A stretch of 64,000 bases of DNA from a virus (Duplodnaviria > Caudoviricetes). This document shows, piece by piece, positions 9,001 through 37,859 of this stretch. Every line of letters starts with the position of its first letter. Positions within the stretch are counted from its first letter, which is position 1. The notes beneath the pieces were generated by a model. That model was given only the letters and a program-made list of their open reading frames with translations, had not been told where the DNA came from and searched no databases. A program made the position numbers and the translations under genes. The stretch is taken from the IMG/VR virus record IMGVR_UViG_3300007735_000917, positions 1-64,000 of that record, one strand, 5' to 3'.

Positions 9001-10325
9001 CCACTACCACCATCTACTTTGAGCACACTTGAATTACTACCACTACGATACACTTGTAGTCTTGATACCAAACTGGTAGAAATAGGTCCAACACCAACAA
9101 AAGCAGATCCACTTTCAAAAATAGGAGTAAATGATTGACCAACAGTAGTTGTACCTGTGTATTTAGGTATTCTATTAACAATACCACTTGATATAGTACC
9201 ACTGCCTCCGCCGCCACCAGCACTAGCTAAAGCATAACTCGCGGTAATTGCTCTACTGGCAGTTATAGGATATCTACTGCCAGTTCTCATAATACCCACA
9301 CTACTTGCATTCAAAGCAAAACTTGCAGTCAAAGCTCTTCTTGCATAACTTGCAGTACCAGAAAATCCAACTGCGTTTCTTCTGCTGGATGTAAATTGGC
9401 TACCACTAACATTACCTTGTATGTGTAGTTTGGTACTTGGAGTGGCAATACCGATACCAACGCTACTGGCACTTACTACTAAAGCATTTGATCCGTAAGC
9501 GCCAGCAACCATCCTATTGTTGCTAAATACTTCTAGTATTGGAAAGCCTGCTATAGTATTTACGCTAAATAAACTGCCACTCAAATTGTCAGTAACTTCA
9601 AATAATGTGCCACTACCACCGTCCACTTTGAGTACACTTGAGTTACTTCCGCTGCGGTAAACTTGCAATCTTGATACTAAACTTGATGATACACCCACTC
9701 CTAAAAATGCAGATCCACTTTCGTGTACAGTTGATGTATTGCCAATTGTAGAAGCACTGGTAAATTTAACCAATCTATTTGTTGTACCAGACACAGATAC
9801 ACTTGTTCCGCTACTTCCACTCGTTCCACTGTTACCGCTACTACCTGATGTGCCTGAAGCTCCACTACTACCACTAGTGCCTGGAGAACCTACACCACTT
9901 GTACCACTACTACCAGCAGTAGCACTTGTTCCACTAGATCCAGATGTACCACTACTACCACTACTACCACTAGTGCCACTAGTGCCAGGCGAACCTACAC
10001 CACTTGTACCGCTACTACCAGCAGTAGCACTTGTTCCACTACTACCTGATGTGCCAGATTCACCTGATGAACCCGATGTGCCAGGCGAACCTACTCCACT
10101 TGTACCACTGCTTCCAGCAGTTGCGGATGTTCCGCTACTTCCCGATGATCCACTTGTACCACTAGTACCACTAGATCCGTTATTACCACTAGTGCCTGAT
10201 GTACCACCTCCACCTCCACTAGCATTTAAAGCATAACTTGCGGTTAATGCGTAACTACTTGTTATTTTTAACGAGGAAGTTAAGTATAAAGTTAACTGAC
10301 TTACAGATGGTTTTGTTTCTGGCAT
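6060..10325 (-). CDS. Long tail fibre protein: SGT repeats, four ~170-aa modules, Ig-like module, six KAIFGYG repeats
   Basis: 1421 aa; VGIG.ATP..KLH fibre motifs; C-terminal repeats shared with 3953-6046. Confidence 0.85.
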   Translation of the reverse strand: MPETKPSVSQLTLYLTSSLKITSSYALTASYALNASGGGGGTSGTSGNNGSSGTSGTSGSSGSSGTSATAGSSGTSGVGSPGTSGSSGESGTSGSSGTSATAGSSGTSGVGSPGTSGTSGSSGSSGTSGSSGTSATAGSSGTSGVGSPGTSGSSGASGTSGSSGNSGTSGSSGTSVSVSGTTNRLVKFTSASTIGNTSTVHESGSAFLGVGVSSSLVSRLQVYRSGSNSSVLKVDGGSGTLFEVTDNLSGSLFSVNTIAGFPILEVFSNNRMVAGAYGSNALVVSASSVGIGIATPSTKLHIQGNVSGSQFTSSRRNAVGFSGTASYARRALTASFALNASSVGIMRTGSRYPITASRAITASYALASAGGGGGSGTISSGIVNRIPKYTGTTTVGQSFTPIFESGSAFVGVGPISTSLVSRLQVYRSGSNSSVLKVDGGSGTLFEVTDNLSGSLFSVNTIAGFPILEVFSNNRMVAGAYGTNALVVSASSVGIGIATPSTKLHIQGNISGSQFTSSRRNAVGFFGTSSFSRRALTASYALNAGGGGTTLRTGSTYPITSSFSRRAITASFALAGGTRLNTASRYPITASRAITASYALASAGGGGGSGTVSSGVVNRLAKYTGATTVGSSAIVYESGSAFIGIGVTSSLVSSLQVYRSGSNVSVLKVDGGSGTLFEVTDNLSGSLFNVNDITGLPIFEVFSNNRIVAGKYAANDLVVSGSRVGIGTATPQAKLHVVGNISGSQFTSSRRNAIGFSGTASYARRALTASYALNASGGGGGSTLRTGSTYPITASKTSAIAAGVTNRFVKYTNASAVNSSTMLYESGSAFIGIGVTSSLVSSLQVYRSGSNASVLKVDGGSGTLFEVTDNLSGSLFNVNDITGLPIFEVFSNNRIVAGKYAANDLVVSGSRVGIGVATPRAKLHVQGNISGSQFTSSRTNAVGFFGTASYARRSLSASYVLGGAAGSSGTSGANGTSGSSGASGTSGSSGTSGTSGSSGTSGTSGTSGTSGSSGASGTSGSSGTSGVGSPGSGGTSGTSSTPALSLAQTFVLTASVSQLKLTQSAANNDQILVILDGLVQSRVGSYTVSGSTLTLTENALSGSNVDIRYFGGGSSTSSSFSRRALTASYLLPASNNTTKAIFGYGYTSAAVSITNLVSNTGVVANDTTGVGSARSNLAAAGYGNDKAIFGYGFTSVNVSITNLVSNTGIVATDTTGVGTDRRSLAASTYGNDKAIFGYGYTSTQVSITNLVSNTGVVATDTTGVGTARYSPAAARYGGDKAIFGYGTTGTNVSIVNLVSNVGVVANDTTGIGTARESLAAAGYGSDKAIFGYGYTTGVVSMTNLVSNTGVVANDVTGVGTARWMLAAAGYGGDKAIFGYGYNSSNAVVSMTNLVNNTGVVATDTTGVGTARRILAAAGYSTT

Positions 10326-26202: not shown

Positions 26203-29200
26203 ATGTCATTAAAACTTTCAGGATCATTAGGATTTACAGGATCATTAATTGTTAAAGGAACACTAAGTTCCACACAAGTAGCTCAAGTCACATCCAGTTA
26301 TGCCAGAAGAGCTATAACAGCAAGTTATGCTTTAAGTTATAGTGGCACATCAGGTACCGCTGGAAGTAGTGGATCTAGTGGATCTAGTGGTACATCAGGA
26401 TCCAGCGGATCTAACGGTTCAAGTGGAAGTTCTGGTAGCAGCGGAACATCAGGAACATCAGGAACATCAGGTTCAAGTGGATCTAGCGGATCTAGCGGTT
26501 CAAATGGAAGTTCTGGTAGCAGCGGATCATCAGGTTCAAGTGGATCTAGCGGAAGTGGTGGTTCAAGTGGAAGTGCTGGCAGCAGTGGTTCAAGTGGCGC
26601 AAGCGGCAGTTCAGGATCATCAGGCAGTTCAGGTACAAGTGGTATAAGTTCATTTACAACATCCACTACAATTTTTCTTATGCCAGCAGTTTCCTCAACT
26701 GTTGATGTTGGCGTGTCAAATACTAGTTGGATGGCAATAGGTCAGATTGTCTATCTTGAGACCGCTGGATATTTTTCTGTCAATGCAATCGGTAGTACCA
26801 CTTCAGTTACTTTAACCAATACTGGATATACAGGAAACGCTTCACCATCAACTGTTATAAGCAGTTCACGAAAACTAACTCCAGGTGGCATAAATGGCGT
26901 TTCTGGTAGTTCAGGATCAAGCGGCAGTTCAGGTACTAGTGGGTCATCAGGAACATCAGGAAGTTCTGGCACAAGCGGTAGTAGTGGAAGTGGAGGAAGT
27001 TCAGGTAGTGCTGGTAGCAGTGGTACTAGTGTATCTGTGAGTGGTACTACCAATTATGTTGTTAAGTTTTCATCAGCTTCTACGGTGGCTACTGGATCAA
27101 TGTTTGATAACGGTAATATTGGTATTGGTACTAATAATCCTACTCGAAAACTACATATTGATGGTGGAGCTAATACAACTGTTGGAATTTATTTAGACGC
27201 TAATGGTATTAGTGGTACAGAACTTGAACAATCATCTGATGCATTTAGATTTCAAATCAGAGATAATATACCCGCATTATTTTATACCAACAATACTGAA
27301 AGAATGCGTATTACTAGTGGTGGTAATGTAGGCATTGGAACTACATCTATCAATGCTAAATTGGATATATTACAATCATCCACTTCAAACAATCAAATTA
27401 GAATTTATTCAGATGATGGTACTGCTCAATTAAGAACATATAGTACTTCGGATGGATATGGTTTGATTATTAATCAATATTATGCAGTAGCAGGTAGTCC
27501 TTATTTGAGAAGTGCTGATTTTGTAGCATCGACCGGAGATGTTTCATCAACAATGATGAGATTCTTTACTAAAAATTATTCATCTAACCCAGCTGAAAGA
27601 CTTAGAATTACTAGTGATGGTAACGTAGGTATTGGTACAACAAGTCCTGTGACTCAATTACATGTTTCGGGTTCACTTCAAATAGGTAATGGTACCAACT
27701 ATGGTAATAAATTTACATTATTTGATGATTTTTCAAGTGGAAAACTTGCATTTGTAATGCGAGATTTAAATGCGGATGATATATTTGGTTTATATTGTAA
27801 TTCCACGACAGGCGAAGTTAGATTATTAGCTGATGATGATAATGGTACAGCTTTCATGACATTCCAAATGAATGCTAGTGAAAGAATGCGTATCACAAAT
27901 GGTGGTAACGTAGGTATAGGTACGACAAGTCCAGCTCAAAAATTACACGTATCTGGTAATTCAAGAATAGATGGTATAGGTGCATTTGGAATAGTACAAA
28001 GCAATTGGACCTCTGGTATATATGGTGTTGAAATTGGTGGTGTAGGTAATGCATTATGGGCAAATGGTGCATCTTATATAGAATTAACTAATAATGGTTA
28101 TTTTGATAGTGGTGGTTGGAAATATGCTAATAGTGCTGCGTCATCAAGATATGAATTAGGAATTGGAGCTCATTATTGGTTTACCGCAGCTTCTGGTACT
28201 GCAGGTAACGCTCTGACTTGGAGTGAAAAAATGAGGTTGGATAATAATGGCAATGTTGGTATTGGTAGTGGCAGTCCTGCTTATAAATTGGATGTTGCTG
28301 GTTCTGCATATGCTTATAATTATTTTACATTGTTAACCGCAGCAACATATGGTACAAGTGACACTAGTGCAGCAATGCAAGTGTATGGATCAACTGGTTC
28401 AGGTGGTTTAACAAATACTATAAAATTTGTAACGGGTGGCAGTGAAAGAGTTCGTATAGATAGTAGTGGTAATGTTGGTATAGGCACAAGTAGTCCACCA
28501 GAAAAATTATCTGTAGCAGGTAATTTTGCTTTAGCCGCATCTGATGCTACTTCATTTGGAAGTGGAAGTAAAATAAGATTTTATAGAGCGGCCGATGGAT
28601 GGGAACCAGCGCAAATTGAACAAATTTGGACTGGCGGTAGTTATCAAGGCGTTTTAGCTTTTAAAACAACTACCGGTGCGTTAGGCACATTGACTACAAA
28701 GATGGTGCTTAATAATAATGGTAATTTAGGTATTGGTACGAGCAGTCCAGCATCTATTTTACATACCGCTGGTTCTGGTGATCAAGTTGTACGATTTACA
28801 CATACTGATAACGTAAATGGTAGAACACTAACTATAAGATTAACCAATAATAATTCTACATATTTAAATTCAGGCACTTATATTCAAGCAATACAAGGAG
28901 CTGGTATAGATTATTATTCACTAGCATTTGGTACCACAAACAATTCTACTACTTCAACTGAAAGAATGCGTATTACCAGTGATGGTAATGTAGGTATAGG
29001 TACAAGTAGTCCATCTGCTGGATTAGATGTTAGTAAAGCAACATCTTATATTGGTATTAATGGAACTGATACATTTCTATATTTAAGAGGATACAATACA
29101 GGCAGATCTTCACTTATAACAAACGCGGGATCTTCAGGTAATTACAATGGTTTAGCAATAATTACAAATGAAACAAATGCCAATTCATTGCCAAGTTGGA

Positions 29201-31272
29201 GAATGGATATCGGTGGATATGATGGTATTAGTTATGGTACAGATAATTTTTGGATTGGTAGAACTCCATCAGGCGGTTCGTTATCAAGATTTTTATTTAT
29301 CAATAATGGTGGTAATATTGGTATAGGCACAACAAGTCCAAATGATAAATTGACTATCTTCGCAGATAATTATTTATCATTTCAAACTTCAAATACCACA
29401 TTTAATTCGGGCAGAGGTGCTAGAATTGGTGCTACTTCAACAGGAAGTGGAATCGGAGAATTAATTTTCGAAACTTATAAAGGTGGAAGTGGTGGTGGCG
29501 AAAGAATGCGTATTACTTCAGATGGTTATGTAGGTATAGGCACATCAACTACAACATCTGGATTACAAATACAAACTGAAGGTACAAATACCACATCAGG
29601 TTCATTCTTGTTTATAAGATCTACCAATGCAAGTTTTGGTGGAGGTGCTATAGGTGTTGGATATCAATTTGCAGCCCCCGTAGGTAATAACTATTATCCA
29701 TTCAGAATTAGAGCTGGTTCAACAAATGCAATATTTACAATAAATAGTTCTGGAGTTTTGTATGCTGGAGATACTACAGGAGCAATTGCTTATGGTAATC
29801 ACGATCCATATTATGCGTTTAATCAAGATACCAATACAGGTATGGATTGGGCAGCCGCTGATACATTAACATTTAAAACAGGTGGTAGTGAAAGAATGCG
29901 TATCGATAGTGGTGGTAATGTGGGTATAGGCACAACAAGTCCTGCTTACAAACTTGAAGTTGCATCAGGAACATCTGGACAACAGTCGTTAGTTAACTTT
30001 AGAACAGCAGACTCAACTACAGCAAACAATGCTGGAATACAGATTTTTGCGACCCCTTCAGCAACTGCCACAAGTCGAGAAGCTGTAATGGCGCTAGACG
30101 CTGATGGTGCAAATGCAAGTGGCGGAGATTACTTTTTAATAAAAAAGCGAGGAAATAGCGGAACTACAGATTTTGAGCAGTACTCAAATGCCTCAATGCG
30201 CTTTGGTACAAACTTTATAAGTCGTGCTACCTATGACATGACTATTGCGAATGATGGTAATGTTGGTATAGGCACAACAAGTCCTGTTGCTAAATTGCAC
30301 ATAAAAGGTGGTAATGAACTATTAAATACATCTGGTAGTACAGGTAGTACAACCAGCGGTTCTTTGATGGTGGTTGGTCAAAATACAAAAGGTGGTGCAA
30401 ATTATCACGACTTCTTGTATACAAAGAATTCAAAAGCTACACTAAATCCACAAAAATATTTCCGCCAAGATAATACCGGTAATTTAGAAATAGTTAACAG
30501 TGCATATAATAATACCATATTCATATTAACTGATAGCGGTTCATTACAATTACCAGTTACACAAACATCAAATGTCACACAATTAAGAAATACAGGCGCT
30601 GGACTTAAAATTAGTGGTTTATCAATATTTGATGATGGTAATGTTCATATTCATGATACCACACCAAATACAAATATGTGGATAAATGTTAGTGGATCTG
30701 GAAAACTTATTGTAAATGGTCAAACAGGTGCAACTGGTGGTGTTTCTATTGGTTCTAGCAATGGAAGAGGTAAGTTGGATGTAAATGGTAGTGTAAATTA
30801 TGATCAAGGCACATTCTATTATTACGCAAACATTTACGGTGGTACTTCAAGTGGTACAATTCCTATCAGTGTATATGCAACTGATCGTATGGGCGCAAGT
30901 GAATTTGATGCCCGTTCAGATAAAAGATTAAAGAAAGATATAAGACCAGTTGATACACAAATGGCACTGCAATTCGTCAAAACATCAAAACCTGTAATGT
31001 ACAAATGGAACATAGGCGTTGATAATGGAGATAAATCTGGTTATATAGCTCAAGACATCATTAAAATTGGCTTCCCACACTTAATAAGCGGCATTCCAAA
31101 CGATGATGTAAAACAAGAAACCGATAACGATGGCTATACCTCACCAGATAAAATTCAACTGTCTATGAATTATGACCAAGTTGTTCCACTGTTAGACGCA
31201 GCATTAAAACACGCATTACAAAAAATCGAACAACTAGAAAATAGAATCTCACAACTAGAATCTAAACAATAA
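26203..31272 (+). CDS. Long tail fibre with C-terminal peptidase S74 intramolecular chaperone
   Basis: About ten ERMRI.S.GNVGIGT.SP repeats; SDKRLKKDI...GYIAQD...coiled coil. Confidence 0.9.
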   Translation: MSLKLSGSLGFTGSLIVKGTLSSTQVAQVTSSYARRAITASYALSYSGTSGTAGSSGSSGSSGTSGSSGSNGSSGSSGSSGTSGTSGTSGSSGSSGSSGSNGSSGSSGSSGSSGSSGSGGSSGSAGSSGSSGASGSSGSSGSSGTSGISSFTTSTTIFLMPAVSSTVDVGVSNTSWMAIGQIVYLETAGYFSVNAIGSTTSVTLTNTGYTGNASPSTVISSSRKLTPGGINGVSGSSGSSGSSGTSGSSGTSGSSGTSGSSGSGGSSGSAGSSGTSVSVSGTTNYVVKFSSASTVATGSMFDNGNIGIGTNNPTRKLHIDGGANTTVGIYLDANGISGTELEQSSDAFRFQIRDNIPALFYTNNTERMRITSGGNVGIGTTSINAKLDILQSSTSNNQIRIYSDDGTAQLRTYSTSDGYGLIINQYYAVAGSPYLRSADFVASTGDVSSTMMRFFTKNYSSNPAERLRITSDGNVGIGTTSPVTQLHVSGSLQIGNGTNYGNKFTLFDDFSSGKLAFVMRDLNADDIFGLYCNSTTGEVRLLADDDNGTAFMTFQMNASERMRITNGGNVGIGTTSPAQKLHVSGNSRIDGIGAFGIVQSNWTSGIYGVEIGGVGNALWANGASYIELTNNGYFDSGGWKYANSAASSRYELGIGAHYWFTAASGTAGNALTWSEKMRLDNNGNVGIGSGSPAYKLDVAGSAYAYNYFTLLTAATYGTSDTSAAMQVYGSTGSGGLTNTIKFVTGGSERVRIDSSGNVGIGTSSPPEKLSVAGNFALAASDATSFGSGSKIRFYRAADGWEPAQIEQIWTGGSYQGVLAFKTTTGALGTLTTKMVLNNNGNLGIGTSSPASILHTAGSGDQVVRFTHTDNVNGRTLTIRLTNNNSTYLNSGTYIQAIQGAGIDYYSLAFGTTNNSTTSTERMRITSDGNVGIGTSSPSAGLDVSKATSYIGINGTDTFLYLRGYNTGRSSLITNAGSSGNYNGLAIITNETNANSLPSWRMDIGGYDGISYGTDNFWIGRTPSGGSLSRFLFINNGGNIGIGTTSPNDKLTIFADNYLSFQTSNTTFNSGRGARIGATSTGSGIGELIFETYKGGSGGGERMRITSDGYVGIGTSTTTSGLQIQTEGTNTTSGSFLFIRSTNASFGGGAIGVGYQFAAPVGNNYYPFRIRAGSTNAIFTINSSGVLYAGDTTGAIAYGNHDPYYAFNQDTNTGMDWAAADTLTFKTGGSERMRIDSGGNVGIGTTSPAYKLEVASGTSGQQSLVNFRTADSTTANNAGIQIFATPSATATSREAVMALDADGANASGGDYFLIKKRGNSGTTDFEQYSNASMRFGTNFISRATYDMTIANDGNVGIGTTSPVAKLHIKGGNELLNTSGSTGSTTSGSLMVVGQNTKGGANYHDFLYTKNSKATLNPQKYFRQDNTGNLEIVNSAYNNTIFILTDSGSLQLPVTQTSNVTQLRNTGAGLKISGLSIFDDGNVHIHDTTPNTNMWINVSGSGKLIVNGQTGATGGVSIGSSNGRGKLDVNGSVNYDQGTFYYYANIYGGTSSGTIPISVYATDRMGASEFDARSDKRLKKDIRPVDTQMALQFVKTSKPVMYKWNIGVDNGDKSGYIAQDIIKIGFPHLISGIPNDDVKQETDNDGYTSPDKIQLSMNYDQVVPLLDAALKHALQKIEQLENRISQLESKQ

Positions 31273-31366: not shown

Positions 31367-31510
31367 ATGGGAAGAAAAAAGAAATATACAACTGAACAAC
31401 AACTTAACGGCGCAAATAAAGAAAAATATATGCGGTACTATCATAATAATATTATTGAAAGAAGAAAAAAAGCATTAGAAAGATATTATAAAAAGAAAGA
31501 AGAGAAATGA
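31367..31510 (+). CDS. Small basic protein coupled to the endonuclease (not in ORF track)
   Basis: MGRKKKYTTEQQ...ALERYYKKKEEK, 47 aa; ATGA overlap with the next gene; TATTTATT upstream. Confidence 0.6.
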   Translation: MGRKKKYTTEQQLNGANKEKYMRYYHNNIIERRKKALERYYKKKEEK

Positions 31511-32307
31511 AACTCTATTTGATGATAAAAACACATAATATAACTGGCAAAAAATATTTATGCAAAAAACAAGCTAGAAATGATATAGAAGCCATTAAAT
31601 ACACAGGATCAGGTCTTAAATGGAAACCACATTTAAAAGAATTTGGCAAAAATTTTACTACTGAAATTTTGTTTGTTTGTCCAATTGAAAACAAAACGGA
31701 ATTTAGAAAAATAGCTATAGATTATAGTTGTAAACTTAATATTTTAAGTGATTCGAATTGGATGAATATGATATTAGAAGATGGCGGTGGTGGTTCAACA
31801 TCAGAAACAAATGGTAGTAAAGGTAAAAAATGGATTTATAAAGATGAACAAAGAAAAAGTGTATGTCAAAGTGTATTGCAAGAATATCTATCAAATGGAT
31901 GGACTCTTGGATTTCCAGAAAAATTTAAAAAAATCATTTCTGATTATAGCAAAGGAAAAATTCCGTGGAATAAAAATAAAAGTTTAAAACTTCCACATGA
32001 ATATACATCAAGAATTTGTAAGAAAAAATACAACTCTAATAAATCTAATAAATATACTAGTGAACTTAGAAGTTTAACTGCAAAAGAATGTTTAAATAGA
32101 CCAGAAGTATTATTGAAATTTAAACAACCAAGAAAATCCCCAATTACAGCAAAAAATGTAACCACGAATGAAATTAAAACGCTTGGTAGAAGACAATGGC
32201 ACGATGTTCACCAAATAGATTATAGGAAACTTTTGAAGGGATATACATCAAAAGGATGGAAGATGGTAGTGGTACCGGGACTTGAACCCGGAACTTCACC
32301 CTTATAA
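31507..32307 (+). CDS. Seg-like (GIY-YIG-related) free-standing homing endonuclease
   Basis: LYLMIKTH..TGKKYL, KYTGSG..W..HL, N...EDGGGG; NUMOD-like KGKIPWNK. Confidence 0.65.
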   Translation: MKLYLMIKTHNITGKKYLCKKQARNDIEAIKYTGSGLKWKPHLKEFGKNFTTEILFVCPIENKTEFRKIAIDYSCKLNILSDSNWMNMILEDGGGGSTSETNGSKGKKWIYKDEQRKSVCQSVLQEYLSNGWTLGFPEKFKKIISDYSKGKIPWNKNKSLKLPHEYTSRICKKKYNSNKSNKYTSELRSLTAKECLNRPEVLLKFKQPRKSPITAKNVTTNEIKTLGRRQWHDVHQIDYRKLLKGYTSKGWKMVVVPGLEPGTSPL

Positions 32308-32340
32308 GGAGTGTACTCTAACCACTTGAGTTATACCACT
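32264..32340 (-). tRNA. tRNA-Ile(UAU)
   Basis: AGTGGTA/TACCACT acceptor, CACTC-CTTATAA-GGGTG anticodon arm, TTCAAGT T-loop, encoded CCA. Confidence 0.92.
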
Positions 32341-32350
32341 ATCAAAAAAC

Positions 32351-32423
32351 TGGAGCGGGTCCGAACTTTGCATTTCGCCTTTTGATCTGGTAGACCAACG
32401 TGCTCTCTTTACACTTGACCCGC
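32351..32423 (-). tRNA. Atypical tRNA-Gly(ACC)
   Basis: GCGGGTC/GACCCGC acceptor, U73, CCA; TTGGT-CTACCAG-ATCAA anticodon arm; A8 and degenerate T arm. Confidence 0.7.
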
Positions 32424-32434
32424 ATCTTAAATAC

Positions 32435-32722
32435 AAATAGGAAGGACTAATGATTACCTCCAAGTTTCACAATATGCACCGTTATTCATCCACAATCCAT
32501 AAAGTTAATTACTCTCTATGTTAACAATTGATGGGATTGGTTTCCCACAACGACCTACGATATATCATTTATTTTAGCTACGATGTCGTTACGCTTGGAT
32601 TATAGGTTGTACGACCCACATTCCGCCATAGACTTACACTACATATTGCTACTCCAACCAATAATGATTCTTCACCACTATTGTGCGTTACCCCTATACA
32701 AAGGTTGTTCCGCCACTATCTT
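32435..32722 (-). ncRNA. ~290-nt pseudoknotted ncRNA, possibly GOLLD-related
   Basis: Terminal helix, long-range helices with G-U pairs, loop pseudoknot, own boxA-like motif, lies between tRNAs. Confidence 0.7.
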
Positions 32723-32747
32723 AAATTGTTAAAGAACTATCAAAAAA

Positions 32748-33025
32748 TGGTAGGGATGAGTGGATTCGAACCACCGCTTTACAGATTTTCGTACTACTAT
32801 AACTTTCGTTACTCATTTCTGATTTGTAGTCTGGACTTTCTCTTCATCATAACATTTCTGTTTTAGATGTTCGCCGTTAAGTCTCTACACCTTCTCATTT
32901 CTGAACTTGGCTCGGGATTGGCAGTTAAGCTTTCCCCGAATTTGACGAATTCTACTTTGAAGATTTCTCTTCAAGCACTCAATTTACGCTAAAGTCTGTT
33001 GCCTCTTCCGCTGGGCTACATCCCC
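32748..33025 (-). tRNA. tRNA-Leu(UAA), intron-split (exons 33025-32992 and 32789-32748), short variable arm
   Basis: Spliced 76 nt: GGGGATG..ACAGA CTT^AAAA TCTGT..GGTGG TTCGAAT CCACT CATCCCT ACCA. Confidence 0.92.
32790..32991 (-). ncRNA. Group I intron (trnL-UAA type), 202 nt, no ORF
   Basis: P AAATTCGGGGAA, Q AATCCCGAGC, R GTGTAGAGACT, S AAGAGAAAGTCC; P1 ACUU/GAGU with U-G splice pair; terminal G. Confidence 0.92.
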
Positions 33026-33065
33026 ATTTAAATTTGTTTAAAGAACGTTTACTTACTACTTATTC

Positions 33066-33093
33066 ATCTTACCACATCATTCTCTGATGTCAA
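33066..33093 (-). promoter_or_regulatory. Sigma70-type promoter with extended -10
   Basis: TTGACA-N16-TAAGAT with TGG before the -10. Confidence 0.75.
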
Positions 33094-33109
33094 CTGCTTT
33101 TTCAAAATT

Positions 33110-33186
33110 TGGTAGCTAGGGTCAGATTCGAACTGACACTGTTTCGTTTTTGAGACGAATGCCTCCTGCCTTTGGGCTACCTAGCC
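33110..33186 (-). tRNA. tRNA-Leu(CAA), short variable arm
   Basis: GGCTAGG/CCTAGCT, TTCGT-CTCAAAA-ACGAA, 5-nt variable loop, TTCGAAT, ACCA. Confidence 0.9.
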
Positions 33187-33289
33187 ATTTAATCTTATAC
33201 AATAACTATACCACAAAATCAAAAAATTTAAGTGAAATTTAATTTCATTTTATACTTATAAGTGTAAAGAAATTACTAATCCTTACACT

Positions 33290-33748
33290 ATGAAATACGA
33301 TAAAAATAAAATGATTCAACTTCAATCCCAAGGAGAAACTTATGATAATATTGCAAAGAAAATGGGTTGTTCTAAATGGACGGTTGATTACCAACTCAAT
33401 CCAAAAAGAAAAAAATGTCAAACTAAATATGACAAACAAAAACAAAAAACAGATACTCTTTATTTTAAGAGAAAACGTTTTTTGTCAGTTGGAAACAAGG
33501 TTCCATTTACATTAAAAGAACTAAAAAATAAAATTGGAACTAATCCAAAATGTTATCTTACCGGAGAATCAATTGATTTGTCAAATCCAAGTGATTACAG
33601 CTTGGATCATATCATTCCTGTATCTAAAGGAGGTGAAAGTTCTCTAAAGAACTTAGGAATTATTAAATCTGATATAAATCAAGCAAAATATAATCTTACA
33701 CCAGAAGAATTTCTCTCATTATGTAAGCGAGTATTAAGACAAATTTAA
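33290..33748 (+). CDS. HNH endonuclease with N-terminal HTH
   Basis: TYDNIAKKMGCSKWTV HTH; CYLTG, SLDHIIPVSKGG, N, NQAK. Confidence 0.85.
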   Translation: MKYDKNKMIQLQSQGETYDNIAKKMGCSKWTVDYQLNPKRKKCQTKYDKQKQKTDTLYFKRKRFLSVGNKVPFTLKELKNKIGTNPKCYLTGESIDLSNPSDYSLDHIIPVSKGGESSLKNLGIIKSDINQAKYNLTPEEFLSLCKRVLRQI

Positions 33749-33751
33749 AAA

Positions 33752-33845
33752 TGGTGGTTCCGCCCGGATTCGAACCGAGACCGTGCTCAAATCTAGAGCT
33801 TATCAACGTTATAAGCGTTGCGTTCTACCGTTAAACTACGGAACC
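33752..33845 (-). tRNA. tRNA with UAU anticodon and long variable arm (94 nt)
   Basis: GGTTCCG/CGGAACC, CAACG-CTTATAA-CGTTG, 24-nt variable region with GCTC/GAGC stem, TTCGAAT, ACCA. Confidence 0.85.
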
Positions 33846-33851
33846 ACTAAA

Positions 33852-33928
33852 TGGTAGCGGGGGAGTGAATTGAACACTCTACCTTCCGGTTATGAGCCGG
33901 ACGATCTATTCCGTTGATCTACCCCGCA
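33852..33928 (-). tRNA. tRNA-Met(CAU), initiator-like
   Basis: U1:U72 mismatch, TCCGG-CTCATAA-CCGGA, TTCAATT, ACCA. Confidence 0.85.
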
Positions 33929-33961
33929 AATTTTTAAAAGAACATAAAATCTTATATACTA

Positions 33962-33989
33962 ACTATACTGCCAAATTTTCAAAAGTCAA
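33962..33989 (-). promoter_or_regulatory. Sigma70-type promoter
   Basis: TTGACT-N16-TATAGT, overlapping the 3' end of the endonuclease gene. Confidence 0.65.
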
Positions 33990-34730
33990 CTGAAATTTAT
34001 TTGTTTTTAACTTTTCAATTTCTTCTTTTTTTATAATTATTAGTTTATGTGGAAATTGTTCCCACTTAGCTTTGTCTCTATCTCTTTCATATCCTTTAAC
34101 TTCAATAAAGACATTATCATAATCTAACAATTTAAAGTCCGGAAAATATCTGTGGTAAGATTCATTCCAATAATATTGGAAATTTTCTTCAATTTTATTT
34201 GACCATCTTATATTATTTTTGTTTAAATAATCTATTACTAATAGTTCCCATTTACCAAGACAACTAGTTTCATTACCTAAACTATCTACAGTCTTAATTG
34301 TTTTAACTCTACCACAAACATTTTTACTAGAATAAGATTCTGGATTATCATTCACTGCTTTCTTCATTTTCAATGAATGTTCCAACCTTTTTTCTTTAGT
34401 CCAAACTTTCTTCTGTAATATTTTTTGTTTTTCAGAAATTTTATTTAACTGCTCTTTTGTTAATGGATTTAACTTCATTTTTAATTTCTGAGAACAAGAT
34501 TTATTGCAACAATTATTTTTTCTTTTTTTTAAAGAAATTTCTTTCTTACATAGAAGACATAAATTTGGTTTTTTTTCATATTCCATTCTTCTTTGGAATG
34601 CATCAAATACATTAAAACATTGTACTTTACAAAAAGTTTTATTACGAACTCTTTTTCTTTTATTATAAGGTATAACTTCCATACAAGATTTACATTTGTT
34701 TGGATTTAAATCATATTCTTCTTTAGTCAT
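33963..34730 (-). CDS. PD-(D/E)xK endonuclease with CxxC repeats (free-standing homing endonuclease-like)
   Basis: WE..V..YL, YFPDF, FIEVKG; N-terminal Zn-finger-like repeats. Confidence 0.8.
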   Translation of the reverse strand: MTKEEYDLNPNKCKSCMEVIPYNKRKRVRNKTFCKVQCFNVFDAFQRRMEYEKKPNLCLLCKKEISLKKRKNNCCNKSCSQKLKMKLNPLTKEQLNKISEKQKILQKKVWTKEKRLEHSLKMKKAVNDNPESYSSKNVCGRVKTIKTVDSLGNETSCLGKWELLVIDYLNKNNIRWSNKIEENFQYYWNESYHRYFPDFKLLDYDNVFIEVKGYERDRDKAKWEQFPHKLIIIKKEEIEKLKTNKFQLTFENLAV

Positions 34731-34800
34731 ATCTAATATATATTAGAGAGCCAGACTAAAGTCTTGTCTTTTGACATTTTTTATTTCAAAGAACAATAAA

Positions 34801-34872
34801 TGGTTGGAACGGTGGGTGCTGCCCCCACTTAAACTGGCTTATGAAACCTGTTTCTTTGCTGAAAGCGCTCCA
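34801..34872 (-). tRNA. Non-canonical tRNA-like gene, CAU anticodon, miniature D arm
   Basis: TGGAGCG/CGTTCCA acceptor, CTTT-CAGC-AAAG, TTCATAA loop, GTGGG-GGCAGCA-CCCAC, ACCA. Confidence 0.65.
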
Positions 34873-34879
34873 ATTGAAA

Positions 34880-34958
34880 TGGTAGCGGGTACAGGAGTCG
34901 AACCTGTTATCACTAACGTTATGAGCGTTGTATGGTAATTCCGTGCCACTCACCCGCA
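34880..34958 (-). tRNA. tRNA-Met(CAU) with 1:72 mismatch
   Basis: GCGGGT/ACCCGC, AACG-CTCATAA-CGTT, TTCGACT, ACCA. Confidence 0.82.
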
Positions 34959-34989
34959 AATTGTTTATAAAGAACTAAAAATTAAAAAT

Positions 34990-35152
34990 TATGTTGGGTG
35001 TGATTATTGAATACTTTGTCCACCCAACAAACAGAGTATACCATGCGCTAACCCCGCAACCAAGAAGTTTTTTAAGAGAACTTCCAACTCTAGGGGCGTA
35101 GTTTCCTATACCCTCCACCAAGTTGTTTTTATTAGATAAACAACCAAACATC
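34990..35152 (-). ncRNA. Unknown ~160-nt structured RNA
   Basis: Stems GGUUGUUU/AAACAACU, AGGGUAUA/UAUACUCU, GAAGUU/AACUUC, UGUUGGGUG/CACCCAACA. Confidence 0.55.
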
Positions 35153-35155
35153 AAA

Positions 35156-35231
35156 TGGTAGAGCCACAGAGAATCGAACTCTGATCTATTCCGTGAAAGG
35201 GAATTATCCTAAACCGTTAGACGATGACTCC
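35156..35231 (-). tRNA. tRNA-Glu(UUC)
   Basis: ATTCC-CTTTCAC-GGAAT, TTCGATT, ACCA. Confidence 0.92.
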
Positions 35232-35238
35232 GTTAAAA

Positions 35239-35315
35239 TGGTGGCCCCGGTGGGACTCGAACCCACGACCAAAAGCTTAAAAGGCTTCTGCTACTACCAA
35301 CTGAGCTACAAGGCC
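35239..35315 (-). tRNA. tRNA-Lys(UUU)
   Basis: GAAGC-CTTTTAA-GCTTT, TTCGAGT, ACCA. Confidence 0.92.
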
Positions 35316-35353
35316 ATTAAAATTGTTTTAAAGAACTTATTTACTACTTTTTT

Positions 35354-35381
35354 ATCTTACCACGATTTTTTGTTTTGTCAA
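35354..35381 (-). promoter_or_regulatory. Sigma70-type promoter with extended -10
   Basis: TTGACA-N16-TAAGAT. Confidence 0.75.
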
Positions 35382-35383
35382 CT

Positions 35384-35497
35384 AAGTATTTCATTCTTTC
35401 GTCGGTGACCCCCTTTGGTTAAAGGCCAAGGCAGTTCCACCATACAAAGATGTTCTAGAGGAGTGCTTCTCCCACCACGCTGAGAGAACGAATACTT
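35384..35497 (-). ncRNA. Unknown ~110-nt GC-rich structured RNA with its own promoter
   Basis: UUCGU/ACGAA, UCUC/GAGA, UCCUCU/AGGGGG, two 7-nt-loop hairpins, possible GGUGG/UCACC pseudoknot. Confidence 0.6.
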
Positions 35498-35508
35498 ACT
35501 ACTTCTTT

Positions 35509-35536
35509 ATCTTACCACTAAGTTTTCAAAGATCAA
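35509..35536 (-). promoter_or_regulatory. Sigma70-type promoter
   Basis: TTGATC-N16-TAAGAT with extended -10. Confidence 0.65.
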
Positions 35537-35604
35537 CTTCTTTTTTCAAGAAGTTTTGAGGTAAATTATAAATATAATCAAATATTTGTAAAATTAGCAA
35601 AAAA

Positions 35605-35681
35605 TGGTAGCCCCGGAGGGAATTGAACCCCCAACCATACGGGTAGAAACCGTGCGCTCTATCCAATTGAGCTACGAGGCC
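35605..35681 (-). tRNA. tRNA-Arg(UCU)
   Basis: GGCCTCG/CGGGGCT, ACGG-TTTCTAC-CCGT, TTCAATT, ACCA. Confidence 0.92.
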
Positions 35682-35698
35682 ATTAAAATTAAAAGAAC

Positions 35699-36031
35699 TT
35701 ACTTACTGTCGCCTAGTTCTTTACGAACAGCTTTACCAAGTTCAGTTAGCTGAAACAGTGGTTCGCCATCTTCGTTGTGACCAGATACATATAATAGACC
35801 ATCTGCTACCATCTTGTCAACTGTTTCTTTAACTTCAGCCAAAACGAGGTCATTATAAATGACTTCAGCTTCAGCTTCATCACATTCAAGTTCTTTCATA
35901 ATGACTTGAATACAGGCTTCTTTTTCTTCAGCTTTGACTTGTTCTTCTACTTTTGCTGTATCTAGCTTAGAACAATGATTTAGTAGATCGTCAATTGACC
36001 CGGTGAAATTATCGGTAATGTACTTGTCCAT
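35699..36031 (-). CDS. Hypothetical protein, winged-helix-like C-terminus
   Basis: VDKMVADGLL...FQLTELGK. Confidence 0.65.
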   Translation of the reverse strand: MDKYITDNFTGSIDDLLNHCSKLDTAKVEEQVKAEEKEACIQVIMKELECDEAEAEVIYNDLVLAEVKETVDKMVADGLLYVSGHNEDGEPLFQLTELGKAVRKELGDSK

Positions 36032-36048
36032 TTTTATAAATAGTTGAA

Positions 36049-36336
36049 TTAAATACCGTAGACGGGAACATTCTTGTAATAGCGAACGGATCGATCAATC
36101 ATCTTATTTAGAATCTTGGCTGTAGATACAGGTACATTTGTTTTTGGACCCCAACCATTTTCAGCTCGGCCTAGAGCAATGGTGAGTGCTTTACACTTAT
36201 CAAAACGATCACCTGCTTTTGTATTGGTGTGACTCCATCCAAATCGGATTGCGCCATCAATTACTGTGGCAACAACCATACCACGGGGCTGACCATTGCG
36301 GTCACGTACCAACTGCTTGAGTGTAGTGTCTTTCAT
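36049..36336 (-). CDS. Hypothetical phage protein
   Basis: 95 aa; GWS...DRFDK..A..IALGRA. Confidence 0.65.
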   Translation of the reverse strand: MKDTTLKQLVRDRNGQPRGMVVATVIDGAIRFGWSHTNTKAGDRFDKCKALTIALGRAENGWGPKTNVPVSTAKILNKMIDRSVRYYKNVPVYGI

Positions 36337-36360
36337 ATAACCTTTATTTAAATGTTTAGT

Positions 36361-36543
36361 TTACTTTCCCTCGACGTAACGTAGTAGATCACGATTTGGT
36401 TCCGTGCCAATCTTTTCATCTACTGTCTGCTTAATAGCAGCCTTATAATAATATTCTGCGTATAGATCTGTTAGATGCGACTTTCGTTCTGCGATTTTTG
36501 ATTTGAGATTGTTAATAAGTGTTTGAGTTGTCTTCGTCTTCAT
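36361..36543 (-). CDS. Hypothetical protein
   Basis: 60 aa, in operon. Confidence 0.55.
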   Translation of the reverse strand: MKTKTTQTLINNLKSKIAERKSHLTDLYAEYYYKAAIKQTVDEKIGTEPNRDLLRYVEGK

Positions 36544-36667
36544 ATTTTGAATTGTAACGTGATGGTTTTACCTCAGTGGCTTGCCACTTCTTGTTAACCT
36601 TTTTATTTGATTTGTTGCGCCAATTTCCTTCGTTGCGTGAACGACGATCTTTGAATGACTTTCCCAT
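36512..36667 (-). CDS. Small basic protein (not in ORF track)
   Basis: MGKSFKDRRSRNEG... 51 aa. Confidence 0.55.
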   Translation of the reverse strand: MGKSFKDRRSRNEGNWRNKSNKKVNKKWQATEVKPSRYNSKYEDEDNSNTY

Positions 36668-36744
36668 ATACTACTTTTAAAAATAAATAGTTTAAGAAAA
36701 GGGATTAACAATCTTTTTTTATTAATCCCAATTCTTAATACCGT

Positions 36745-37020
36745 TTAATTTGCAGAAGTCTGAGTAGATTCAACAGTGGTGGTTGTGGCACCAGTGGGAG
36801 TTGCGTCGTATGTATATACGATACTTGGCTTACCACGCTTACCAGTCTTCTGCGAACCACTGATCTTGTATCGTCCAGCGGTTACACTACGCTTAACGTG
36901 CATCCGAATTGTTGGAGCCTTAACGTTGGCGTTGATATTAATCAGATCAACAATAGTGAAATTGCGATCAGTGATTTCGTTTACTGCGGTTGCCTTACGG
37001 CCTGTCTTGTTCTTGTTCAT
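36745..37020 (-). CDS. Small putative DNA-binding (winged-helix-like) protein
   Basis: TGKRGKPSIVY wing-like motif; strong promoter upstream. Confidence 0.6.
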   Translation of the reverse strand: MNKNKTGRKATAVNEITDRNFTIVDLININANVKAPTIRMHVKRSVTAGRYKISGSQKTGKRGKPSIVYTYDATPTGATTTTVESTQTSAN

Positions 37021-37059
37021 ATTTTTTGTTTTTTGTTAATGTTAACCGACTACAAATTT

Positions 37060-37087
37060 ATCTTACCACGGTTTTAGAAAATGTCAA
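37060..37087 (-). promoter_or_regulatory. Sigma70-type promoter with extended -10
   Basis: TTGACA-N16-TAAGAT. Confidence 0.75.
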
Positions 37088-37097
37088 CGTTCTTTTT

Positions 37098-37307
37098 TTA
37101 AATCTTTCGAGCAGCCTCAAAAACCAGAGCATTGGTCAAATCGCCAAAGCCATAACGCTTGCCATTGCGGTCAAACGTAGTGTCAGTGCTTTTTTGGTAA
37201 TAACCAACGTTCTCACCATTGGGACCGTGTGCGTAAATTACGCTGCCACTATCCTTTACATATCCAATTCGTGCGCTCTTACTGTCCGTAACGTATTTTG
37301 TACTCAT
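37098..37307 (-). CDS. Small beta-repeat hypothetical protein
   Basis: 69 aa with D/N-G-x-x-V/Y-G repeats. Confidence 0.6.
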   Translation of the reverse strand: MSTKYVTDSKSARIGYVKDSGSVIYAHGPNGENVGYYQKSTDTTFDRNGKRYGFGDLTNALVFEAARKI

Positions 37308-37316
37308 ATTATTATT

Positions 37317-37859
37317 TTAGTTATTGTCAATATAGTTGCGATAAAAACCCATTACAATTCCACTAGTAGTACCCACATTAAGTGATCGTACACTGCCATA
37401 TGCTGGAACAGTAACAATATAGTCACTGTTATCAAGAATATAATCACTCAATCCAGCCTTTTCTTCGCCAAATACAAACATTGGCTTATCTACACCAGTA
37501 AATACCCAGTGGTTAAAAATAGATACTGTCTTGTCACTATACTTGGGAATGTTATTTTCCACAGCAATTAGTGTATAACCGTTATCATTTACATAATCAA
37601 CAAAGTCTTCTTCTGTCTTAATATGATTTAAATCTGTATAGTGATGAGTACCCACCGTACCACGACGGTCCCATTGCTTGCTTCCTCCTACATACATAGC
37701 TTCCTTGAAGCCAAAGAAGTTTGCATTGCGTACCAAAGTGGAGAGGTTAAAGTCTCCATTAACGTGCATCATAGCAACACCTGCTTCGATACAACTATTC
37801 TTACAGTAAGACTTAATATCGTCTACTGTCTTGCTCTTTAAATGATCCAAAACATTCAT
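37317..37859 (-). CDS. SpoU/TrmH (SPOUT) family RNA 2'-O-methyltransferase
   Basis: NLSTLVRNANFFG, FVFGEEKAGL, VPAYGSVRSLNVGT. Confidence 0.88.
   Translation of the reverse strand: MNVLDHLKSKTVDDIKSYCKNSCIEAGVAMMHVNGDFNLSTLVRNANFFGFKEAMYVGGSKQWDRRGTVGTHHYTDLNHIKTEEDFVDYVNDNGYTLIAVENNIPKYSDKTVSIFNHWVFTGVDKPMFVFGEEKAGLSDYILDNSDYIVTVPAYGSVRSLNVGTTSGIVMGFYRNYIDNN

Follow-up and report, generated by a model that had tools for sequence, protein, structure and literature searches.

The 64,000-nucleotide (nt) stretch analysed here (hereafter the window; positions 1 to 64,000 of the virus record IMGVR_UViG_3300007735_000917) carries on its minus strand, from 35681 down to 32264, an RNA gene array with 11 tRNA-type genes, interleaved with three folded RNAs named ncRNA_A, ncRNA_B and ncRNA_C. 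Our results suggest that this locus is probably a stable-RNA gene array, equipped with three folded RNAs, of a large freshwater tailed phage. Indeed, PHROGs matches include a tail fibre of 1,689 amino acids (aa) and baseplate wedge proteins, and the G+C content of the window is 34%. The freshwater distribution is supported by 14 DNA runs from 6 studies, labelled river, lake, freshwater, drinking water or viral metagenome, which hold 75–95% of the words sampled from the window stretch. No close relative among isolated phages was found by megablast of the region, and tblastn with the helicase gave at most 32% identity.

Reading along the minus strand, the array begins with tRNA-Arg(UCU) (35605..35681, with a boxA-like motif ahead at 35692-35698), followed by tRNA-Lys(UUU) (35239..35315; promoter, 35354-35381; boxA-like motif, 35330-35336) and tRNA-Glu(UUC) (35156..35231), all of which are called by both ARAGORN and the Rfam tRNA model (RF00005). 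A CAU tRNA that combines a U1xU72 mismatch with a D stem of elongator type (34880..34958, boxA-like motif ahead at 34969-34975) is called by ARAGORN and missed by the Rfam model, and the adjacent shrunken CAU tRNA-like gene, whose T loop is devoid of the TTC consensus (34801..34872), is called by neither. Three genes called by both methods come next, namely an initiator-type CAU tRNA (33852..33928; boxA-like motif, 33937-33943; promoter-like site, 33962-33989), a UAU tRNA whose variable arm measures 24 nt (33752..33845) and a 77-nt CAA-anticodon tRNA with a short variable arm (33110..33186). The array continues with an intron-split tRNA(UAA) (32748..33025, promoter at 33066-33093 and boxA-like motif at 33040-33046) and a tRNA-Gly-like gene called by neither method (32351..32423), which has the anticodon ACC, U73, a T stem of 4 base pairs (bp) and an 8-nt loop, and it ends with a canonical tRNA-Ile(UAU) called by both (32264..32340). 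In total, ARAGORN called 8 tRNAs and the Rfam model 7 of those 8, while the CAU tRNA at 34880-34958 and two odd cloverleaves (32351-32423 and 34801-34872) are the 3 of 11 genes that fail the Rfam model. By our count, 7 of the 11 genes are non-canonical in some respect, namely the two short-armed Leu-anticodon tRNAs, the long-armed UAU tRNA, the two CAU tRNAs with U1xU72 and the two odd cloverleaves. An earlier reading of the letters of the window (hereafter the original prediction) had counted 11 tRNA or tRNA-like genes, about half of them non-canonical, and had proposed to run such scans. The count of 11 holds, with 8 ARAGORN calls, one intron-split gene and two cloverleaves backed by covariation, and the Rfam scan additionally returned a group I intron.

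The departures from the textbook form are themselves conserved. The odd cloverleaves do not have the D- and T-loop signatures of ordinary tRNAs. In relatives, the acceptor and anticodon stems of both display both-sided changes with pairing retained. For the Gly-like gene, compensatory changes in these two stems were found over 7 variants, and in a diverged relative (L041) the shrunken CAU gene has both stems swapped for other complementary sequences, its D and T arms being retained. Since the stems change on both sides and yet stay paired, selection maintains these cloverleaves. The Leu-anticodon tRNAs occur in some relatives as long-armed 84- and 88-nt forms that replace the short-armed ones (for the CAA anticodon, 84 nt instead of 77 nt). 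The long-armed UAU tRNA is identical in sequence across all 29 loci with that gene, although the SpoU-family methyltransferase encoded upstream (see below) falls to 78% identity among the same loci. It should be noticed that a second, different long-armed UAU tRNA (93 nt, 39 bits with Rfam) is found in some relatives (L001 15708-15800, L006 15982-16074 and L008 15317-15409), so that a long variable arm on AUA readers recurs in the clade. Bacterial initiator tRNAs are marked by a 1x72 mismatch, an A11:U24 pair and three G/C pairs beside the anticodon loop. The tRNA at 33852-33928 displays U1xU72, which replaces the canonical C1xA72, together with A11:U24 and the C-G, G-C and G-C pairs of the anticodon stem. 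U72 instead of A72 is found in most initiator-like CAU tRNAs of the clade, including both of the window.

The tRNA set also fits the codon use of 41 open reading frames (ORFs) of the window, in agreement with the proposal that the tRNAs serve AT-rich codons. ATA makes up 41% of the Ile codons, and Leu is encoded by TTA and TTG in 40% and 31% of cases, respectively; AGA (69% of the Arg codons), AAA (76% for Lys), GAA (89% for Glu) and GGT (54% for Gly) are likewise favoured. Codon supply alone, i.e., the reading of the A/U-rich codons preferred by the phage, accounts for the tRNA set.

To place the array among its relatives, we compared loci from 31 clade contigs, recruited by searches with the SpoU protein, a ligase and two RNA patterns; all element counts over these 31 contigs refer to the DNA retrieved for each contig. 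ncRNA_A and ncRNA_B are each present in 23 contigs and ncRNA_C in 16, which bears out the claim of three structured RNAs other than tRNAs. ncRNA_A and ncRNA_B occur together in 20 contigs and all three RNAs in 13, while the canonical tRNA-Ile is found in 5. These counts show that the array consists of a conserved core (Arg, ncRNA_A, Lys, Glu and ncRNA_B) and a variable remainder invaded by mobile elements.

The sub-units of the array share two short sequence motifs, as had been claimed from the letters alone. The first, TGGTAAGAT, has 6 copies in the window when both strands are counted; 4 of them are on the array strand, within 33066-37068, and each of these follows TTGACA or TTGATC at a distance of 16–17 nt. 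A general promoter scan of the window gave 25 sites against 26.7 in shuffles, and only this specific extended -10 form is enriched. The second, GTTCTTT, has 9 copies on the array strand within 32264-35700 against 0.58 expected; 7 of them lie 16–21 nt ahead of a tRNA 5′ end, ncRNA_C or orf255, and the other 2 within the antisense of the HNH ORF (both genes are described below). When the boxA pattern was allowed mismatches, no excess over chance was found, the enrichment being that of the exact 7-mer on one strand. The copy before ncRNA_C (32731-32737) has 14 consecutive bases in common with the Escherichia coli rrnB leader, in a stretch that we take to be boxA, and because of this match the label ‘boxA-like’ is fair. 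Compared with the boxA antitermination leader of rrn operons (the NusB/NusE site), the phage motif shares these 14 bases but is repeated 7–8 times in one RNA array and lies inside a helix in ncRNA_A.

The largest of the three RNAs, ncRNA_C (32424..32722, minus strand; about 294 nt), is highly structured. Over 10 distinct sequences, pairing holds at 99.5% for its 81 predicted pairs, and 12 pairs are altered on both sides, compared to 0–3 when the partners are slid. By eye, its outline resembles the manA consensus: a helix closes the RNA, the 5′ domain is a two-step hairpin, a further hairpin bears GUGGUG, and a 5-bp hairpin with a loop of 11 nt immediately precedes the 3′ strand of the helix that closes the RNA. 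We regard a relationship of ncRNA_C to manA (RF01745) as fairly probable, although ncRNA_C is ~100 nt longer and its central domain is much larger. ROOL (RF03087) was rejected as an identity for ncRNA_C, with one partial match of 15.1 bits in the window (cut-off 99.1) and none in the diverged variant of L041.

RNA data came from four metatranscriptome runs of four studies, all in the form of assembled contigs, which were mapped on 32200-36100 at 90% likeness; note that gaps or thin cover of the array in these contigs (e.g., 33117-33640 and 35737-35998) should not be read as silence. In 3 of the 4 metatranscriptomes (three studies), the depth of ncRNA_C greatly exceeds that of its neighbours. 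Contigs of 295–326 nt over 32430-32724 have depths of 204 in X16 (with bins up to 970), 274 in X17 and 257 in X18, compared to at most 35 in nearly all neighbouring bins. In addition, the RNA is joined 3′ to 5′ in contigs of X16 and X17, at 32722->32430 (293 nt) and 32717->32424 (294 nt), and in X18 the loose ends each carry sequence of the opposite end. The X17 contig of 323 nt equals 293 + 30, as expected from a circular path if the assembler word length is 31, which is presumably the case. In DNA, ncRNA_C is single copy in all 24 of 24 sources. The simplest reading of these joints is a circle or a head-to-tail multimer. Both ends of ncRNA_C share the same 7–9 bases, which at the 3′ end are the leader of the Gly-like tRNA; it may therefore be that an identical leader precedes both cuts, and the joint has no unique position.

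Directly after tRNA-Glu starts ncRNA_B (34992..35155, minus strand), whose 5′ 105 nt form a wcaG-like part with three hairpins, followed by a pseudoknot-like 3′ domain. The first hairpin (P1) is built from four different complementary helix sequences in relatives, and changes in the 3′ part, read by eye, fit the pseudoknot stem. The alignment to the wcaG model (RF01761) spans all three hairpins and the UGGU-type linkers, and ncRNA_B of the diverged relatives L027 and L026 scores 32.9 and 32.0 bits, respectively (below the cut-off of 42). We consider ncRNA_B likely to be related to wcaG: its three hairpins and UGGU-type linkers align with those of that motif and it is phage-borne beside a Met tRNA, whereas it differs in staying under the cut-off, in its extra pseudoknot-like 3′ domain and in the failure of the reciprocal search. 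In two runs, its RNA depth is 30–100, several-fold over its neighbours.

The tails of ncRNA_B display complementarity to the 3′ ends of bacterial RNAs. Over 11 nt and with no mismatch, positions 35062-35052 are complementary to the 3′ end of the initiator tRNA metY of E. coli, a match reached by none of 5,000 dinucleotide shuffles, the tail targets having been picked post hoc among ~40 possible tRNA ends, and this tail is exact in 15 of 16 variants. A second tail (35120-35113) is complementary over 8 nt to the 3′ end of the transfer-messenger RNA (tmRNA) of E. coli, a match equalled by 22 of 5,000 shuffles. When ncRNA_B was compared to the 56 distinct phage tRNA ends of the clade loci, the best match was 7 nt, and U72 of the phage initiator-type tRNAs places a mismatch midway in the 11-nt pairing. 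The acceptor end of initiator tRNA is generally regarded as nearly universal in bacteria. As a pattern of sequence, the complementarity to initiator tRNA and tmRNA is suggestive, and both would be candidate partners of ncRNA_B.

The third RNA, ncRNA_A, has its own promoter (35509-35536) and occupies with it 35384..35536 on the minus strand, the RNA interval itself being 35384-35505 (about 115 nt). The Rfam scan gave no hit for its strand at E <= 5. In its terminal helix, the boxA-like leader is paired with the trailer, and some relatives with 8 nt inserted in the leader have a correspondingly longer trailer. Covariation was found in the alignment for one hairpin only, which bears the invariant loop CCUUUAA, and the RNA depth is 3–6. 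We also noticed that UGGUGGGA in ncRNA_A is complementary over 8 nt to the 3′ end of a variant of the downstream tRNA-Lys(UUU) carried by relatives including L002, L026 and L041; with the tRNA-Lys of the window itself, 6 nt only are paired. Among the three RNAs, which had been called ‘unknown’, ncRNA_A is indeed uncatalogued, whereas ncRNA_B and ncRNA_C look like wcaG and manA, both under the respective cut-offs. Given these two resemblances, ncRNA_B and ncRNA_C are not wholly undescribed.

We propose that several strong sigma-70-type promoters would drive untranslated array transcripts, each array sub-unit starting with a boxA-like leader of putative boxA function, and that tRNAs and free folded RNAs would be released from these transcripts by the tRNA-trimming enzymes of the host (presumably RNase P and RNase Z). 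The tRNAs would supply the most-used phage codons (AUA, UUA, UUG, AGA, AAA, GAA and GGU), and the array would give the phage its own initiator-type tRNA. As for the folded RNAs, ncRNA_B would be a wcaG-type RNA whose single-stranded tails could pair with the 3′ ends of bacterial initiator tRNA and tmRNA as putative targets, ncRNA_C an enlarged manA-type RNA that would accumulate highly, with the joined ends seen in RNA data, and ncRNA_A an uncatalogued RNA with a predicted four-way junction. Finally, the group I intron, the HNH gene and orf255 would be selfish invaders that, together with recombination, may have led to a mosaic array.

Several points weigh against this proposal. Concerning the identity of the RNAs, ncRNA_B reaches 31.7 bits with wcaG RF01761 (cut-off 42; E 0.006 in an 8-kilobase (kb) search), and ncRNA_C 14.4 and 14.6 bits with manA RF01745 (cut-off 55.2). 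In the reciprocal direction, a covariance model of ncRNA_B, built from near-identical sequences with an effective sequence number of 1.29, gave no match at the Rfam wcaG sites of 5 cyanophage genomes and weak hits elsewhere. ncRNA_A covaries little and has an unremarkable fold energy (z −1.1), and the boxA match is a resemblance of sequence only. The tail targets of ncRNA_B were compared with E. coli RNAs only. With respect to the RNA data, assembled contigs carry no information on the strand, the true ends or the share of joined molecules, and RNA libraries may contain DNA. Moreover, reverse transcriptase might switch templates more readily at the direct repeat of 7–9 nt found at both ends of ncRNA_C, and the joints could stem from such switching or from an assembly effect at low junction coverage.

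The original prediction went further and united the tRNAs, the three RNAs and a SPOUT methyltransferase into one integrated counter-defence system, in which nuclease-resistant, 2′-O-methylated tRNAs would withstand PrrC, RloC and PARIS-type nucleases. The methyltransferase is indeed there: a SpoU-family RNA 2′-O-methyltransferase of 180 aa is encoded on the same strand (37317..37859, minus; PF00588, E 4.5e-22, 79.1 bits with a cut-off of 29.7), its stop codon lying 1,636 nt upstream of the first tRNA, in keeping with the announced ~1.6 kb. Its best relatives of solved structure are the Gm18 TrmH enzymes (E about 2e-5), with TrmL weaker. A role in counter-defence gains from the co-occurrence of SpoU with the array in 18 of the 31 contigs and from the invariant ncRNA_A loop CCUUUAA, which resembles the anticodon loop of tRNA-Lys with a C at position 33. 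Phage tRNAs that evade nucleases or replace cleaved host tRNAs are documented (in the accessible part of PMC10264068). Some weight is also added by an RNA ligase of the T4 Rnl1 type in the clade (PF09511, 57.7 bits in the relative G001; relatives in 64 viral loci), an enzyme that T4 uses for tRNA repair. In contrast, some 20 kb separate SpoU from the array in two of the 18 contigs, and the gene is absent from G001, a complete 295-kb relative with ncRNA_A, ncRNA_B and ncRNA_C, although the control for the family was positive in 14 of 14 genomes. Three contigs have SpoU with no array in the retrieved DNA. Moreover, SpoU stays below the NCBIfam equivalog cut-offs (36.9 vs 227 bits for TrmH and 30.3 vs 190.6 bits for TrmL), so that no substrate can be assigned, the 64-kb window holds no RNA ligase gene, and codon usage alone explains the tRNA set. 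We therefore consider a single counter-defence system unlikely, and any effect of the array on defence is something that we infer. Most of its supposed parts do co-occur in relatives, but the methylase falls out of the proposed system; SpoU is a frequent neighbour that probably modifies some RNA, and the array does not require it.

Two further observations concern enzymes that act on RNA. In L016 and L017 (L017:10001-14959), in which the retrieved DNA holds no array, SpoU is found ~3.6 kb upstream of the Rnl1-type ligase gene, another combination of enzymes that handle RNA. RtcB, considered as another joining enzyme, had no match in G001.

A different and bolder possibility, which we judge improbable, is that the array would serve as an RNA-based take-over kit for translation start and rescue. 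The tails of ncRNA_B would then capture the free 3′ ends of host initiator tRNA and tmRNA, and the phage initiator-type tRNA, with U72 for A72, would escape this capture. Excision by the tRNA-trimming enzymes would free ncRNA_C, which would then be circularised, perhaps by the Rnl1-type ligase of the clade, and the resulting circle might act as a nuclease-proof subunit of a manA-like shell that could store or shield small RNAs such as tRNAs.

A further explanation would have the three folded RNAs act in cis, as leader, spacer or processing elements for antitermination, folding and cleavage of the tRNA precursor. Every folded RNA follows or contains a boxA-like leader, the leader-trailer pairing of ncRNA_A is like that of the leader-trailer helices of rRNA (as described in the accessible part of PMC10250234), and Rfam files wcaG and manA as cis-regulatory. 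However, a discrete unit of ~294 nt with joined ends and with a depth far above that of the flanking tRNAs and spacers, as displayed by ncRNA_C, is unexpected of a spacer. The several-fold excess of ncRNA_B over its neighbours in two runs and the cages that manA is reported to form in vitro (preprint 10.64898/2026.07.01.735769, as far as its accessible text goes) likewise argue for free RNAs, making an action in cis quite doubtful. That the odd tRNA-like genes and folded intervals are functionless, decaying tRNA remnants, a fate that the original prediction had itself considered and that would suit the three failures with the Rfam tRNA model and the greatly varying array content among relatives, is extremely unlikely, being largely excluded by the compensatory changes in the two odd cloverleaves and ncRNA_C, and at odds with the invariance of the long-armed UAU tRNA in 29 loci despite the divergence of SpoU and with the presence of ncRNA_B and ncRNA_C in RNA data.

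The common view of phage tRNA arrays is that they supplement the codon supply or provide spares against tRNA-cutting defences, and here, in a widespread freshwater phage clade, a tRNA array also bears conserved folded RNAs. This combination has published analogues, i.e., the T4 tRNA region, the cyanophage cluster of wcaG, manA and abiF, ROOL and GOLLD, and manA itself, so that the claim of an undescribed system does not stand. In T4, segB, 8 tRNAs and two small stable RNAs (species I and II) are carried on one precursor of 1.75 kb (PMC2330249, accessible part). As in that region, tRNAs and small stable RNAs stand together in the window with a probable free-standing homing endonuclease gene inside the cluster, whereas T4, to the extent covered by that source, has a single promoter region, no tRNA intron and no reported end-joined RNA.

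The closest resemblance in gene order is found in cyanophages. Here, wcaG and manA were described in 2010 as possible riboswitches from marine metagenomes and T4-like cyanophages (Weinberg et al., PMC2864571, accessible part). In the cyanophage S-CREM1 (OP535465; PMC9964418 Table 4), the order is tRNA-Arg, wcaG, tRNA-Met, tRNA-Leu, manA, tRNA-Asn, abiF, tRNA-Gly and tRNA-Ile, and the array of the window has on one strand the similar order Arg(UCU), wcaG-type, Met, Leu, manA-type, Gly and Ile(UAU). In contrast to that cluster, the window array holds no abiF RNA, its ncRNA_A is devoid of a counterpart there and its wcaG- and manA-type RNAs stay under the cut-offs, while the boxA-like leaders and the tRNA intron belong to the window clade and not to the cyanophage clusters. 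Of 6 wcaG or manA sites confirmed by Rfam in five cyanophages, 4 have a tRNA at a distance of no more than about 850 nt: manA of S-SSM7 abuts tRNA-Gly, wcaG of S-SM2 and Syn9 lies 800–850 nt from tRNAs, and manA of P-SSM2 stands with no tRNA within 1.5 kb.

As for the large RNAs, ROOL and GOLLD are located near phage tRNA islands and form cages (10.1101/2024.12.08.627333; PMC5737381; PMC12990946, all in their accessible parts), and manA self-assembles in vitro into a 60-subunit shell, as the accessible text of the preprint 10.64898/2026.07.01.735769 reports. ncRNA_C has, by eye, the manA outline and is phage-borne beside tRNAs, as reported for ROOL and GOLLD, but it scores 14–15 bits against the ROOL and manA cut-offs of 99 and 55; moreover, shells were seen for manA in vitro, whereas ncRNA_C is known here from sequence and RNA contigs. 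In the literature searched, including the accessible part of the review PMC12990946, no report of end-joining of manA, ROOL or GOLLD was found, and searches for circular RNA with bacteriophage, tRNA and GOLLD gave no such report. The same literature held nothing on the abundance or end-joining of a manA-like RNA, nor on a complementarity of a wcaG-like RNA to the ends of initiator tRNA or tmRNA with an avoiding phage initiator, and the literature on boxA and phage tRNA operons no boxA-like leaders in phage tRNA arrays; the tRNA neighbours of wcaG and manA may already be noted in the supplement of Weinberg 2010, outside the text searched. An RNA that ranks with the most abundant phage RNAs of river metatranscriptomes, and is seemingly end-joined, resembles the manA reported to build shells in the accessible part of the preprint, and the tail matches of ncRNA_B suggest concrete candidate partners, together with a testable route of biogenesis, for the orphan wcaG and manA motifs.

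Three mobile elements have entered the array. A group I intron (RF00028) was detected with Rfam at 32809-33001 (72.2 bits, cut-off 50); the exons of tRNA(UAA) are 33025-32992 and 32789-32748, and the 202-nt intron (32790-32991), inserted after position 34 of the UAA anticodon, contains no ORF and ends with the base G. One RNA contig omits exactly 32790-32991 (202 nt), and the spliced anticodon loop reads UAA, while head-to-tail joints of the intron are present in two RNA runs. The intron is found in 5 of the 31 contigs, and intron-less alleles exist in relatives. In cyanobacterial tRNA-Leu(UAA), the intron lies between anticodon positions 34 and 35. Like this cyanobacterial and plastid group I intron, that of the window cuts a UAA tRNA between 34 and 35 and is spliced in RNA data, but its phage carrier tRNA has a short variable arm. 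The intron also has 80% identity to a stretch of LR756501.1 (a 735-kb record of an uncultured phage) and 69% identity to a stretch within the capsid gene of Pelagibacter phage HTVC120P, from which it follows that this intron family moves between very different phages and target genes.

The second element is an HNH endonuclease gene on the plus strand (33290..33748; PF13395, E 6.6e-8, and PHROG HNH families), which is peculiar to the window, being absent from 50 of 50 loci compared. The third, orf255 (33963..34730, minus strand; 24% GC), is present in 4 of the 31 contigs and has no match in Pfam, PHROG, NCBIfam or PDB. A minority of its look-alikes in the atlas have NUMOD3 or TnsA-like N domains, which is a lead only; orf255 is a probable free-standing homing endonuclease-like gene of patchy distribution.

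The interval between SpoU and the array (35699..37307, minus strand) is filled by six small ORFs of 69, 91, 51, 60, 95 and 110 aa that are conserved in relatives. Five of them were scanned and gave no Pfam or PHROG family, and one of the six has its own promoter (TTGACA-16-TAAGAT, 37060-37087). At the other end, a 266-aa ORF of no known family on the plus strand (31507-32307) converges on the array with an overlap of 44 nt with the last tRNA gene, and it is found, at 96% identity, only in relatives that also have the canonical tRNA-Ile.

Some minor observations were made on ncRNA_C and in S-CREM1. A doubled ATCGTAG lies inside a covarying helix of ncRNA_C (about 32560-32600). In S-CREM1, a hairpin at L051:6040-6130 encloses two copies of ATCGTAG, as in ncRNA_C, and adjoins an unannotated tRNA-like gene (L051:5965-6035; tRNA-His, atg, according to ARAGORN) located between tRNA-Met and tRNA-Leu. 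Finally, the window holds two very long tail-fibre-like genes (26203-31272, 1,689 aa, and 6060-10325, 1,421 aa), with matches to collagen-like repeats.

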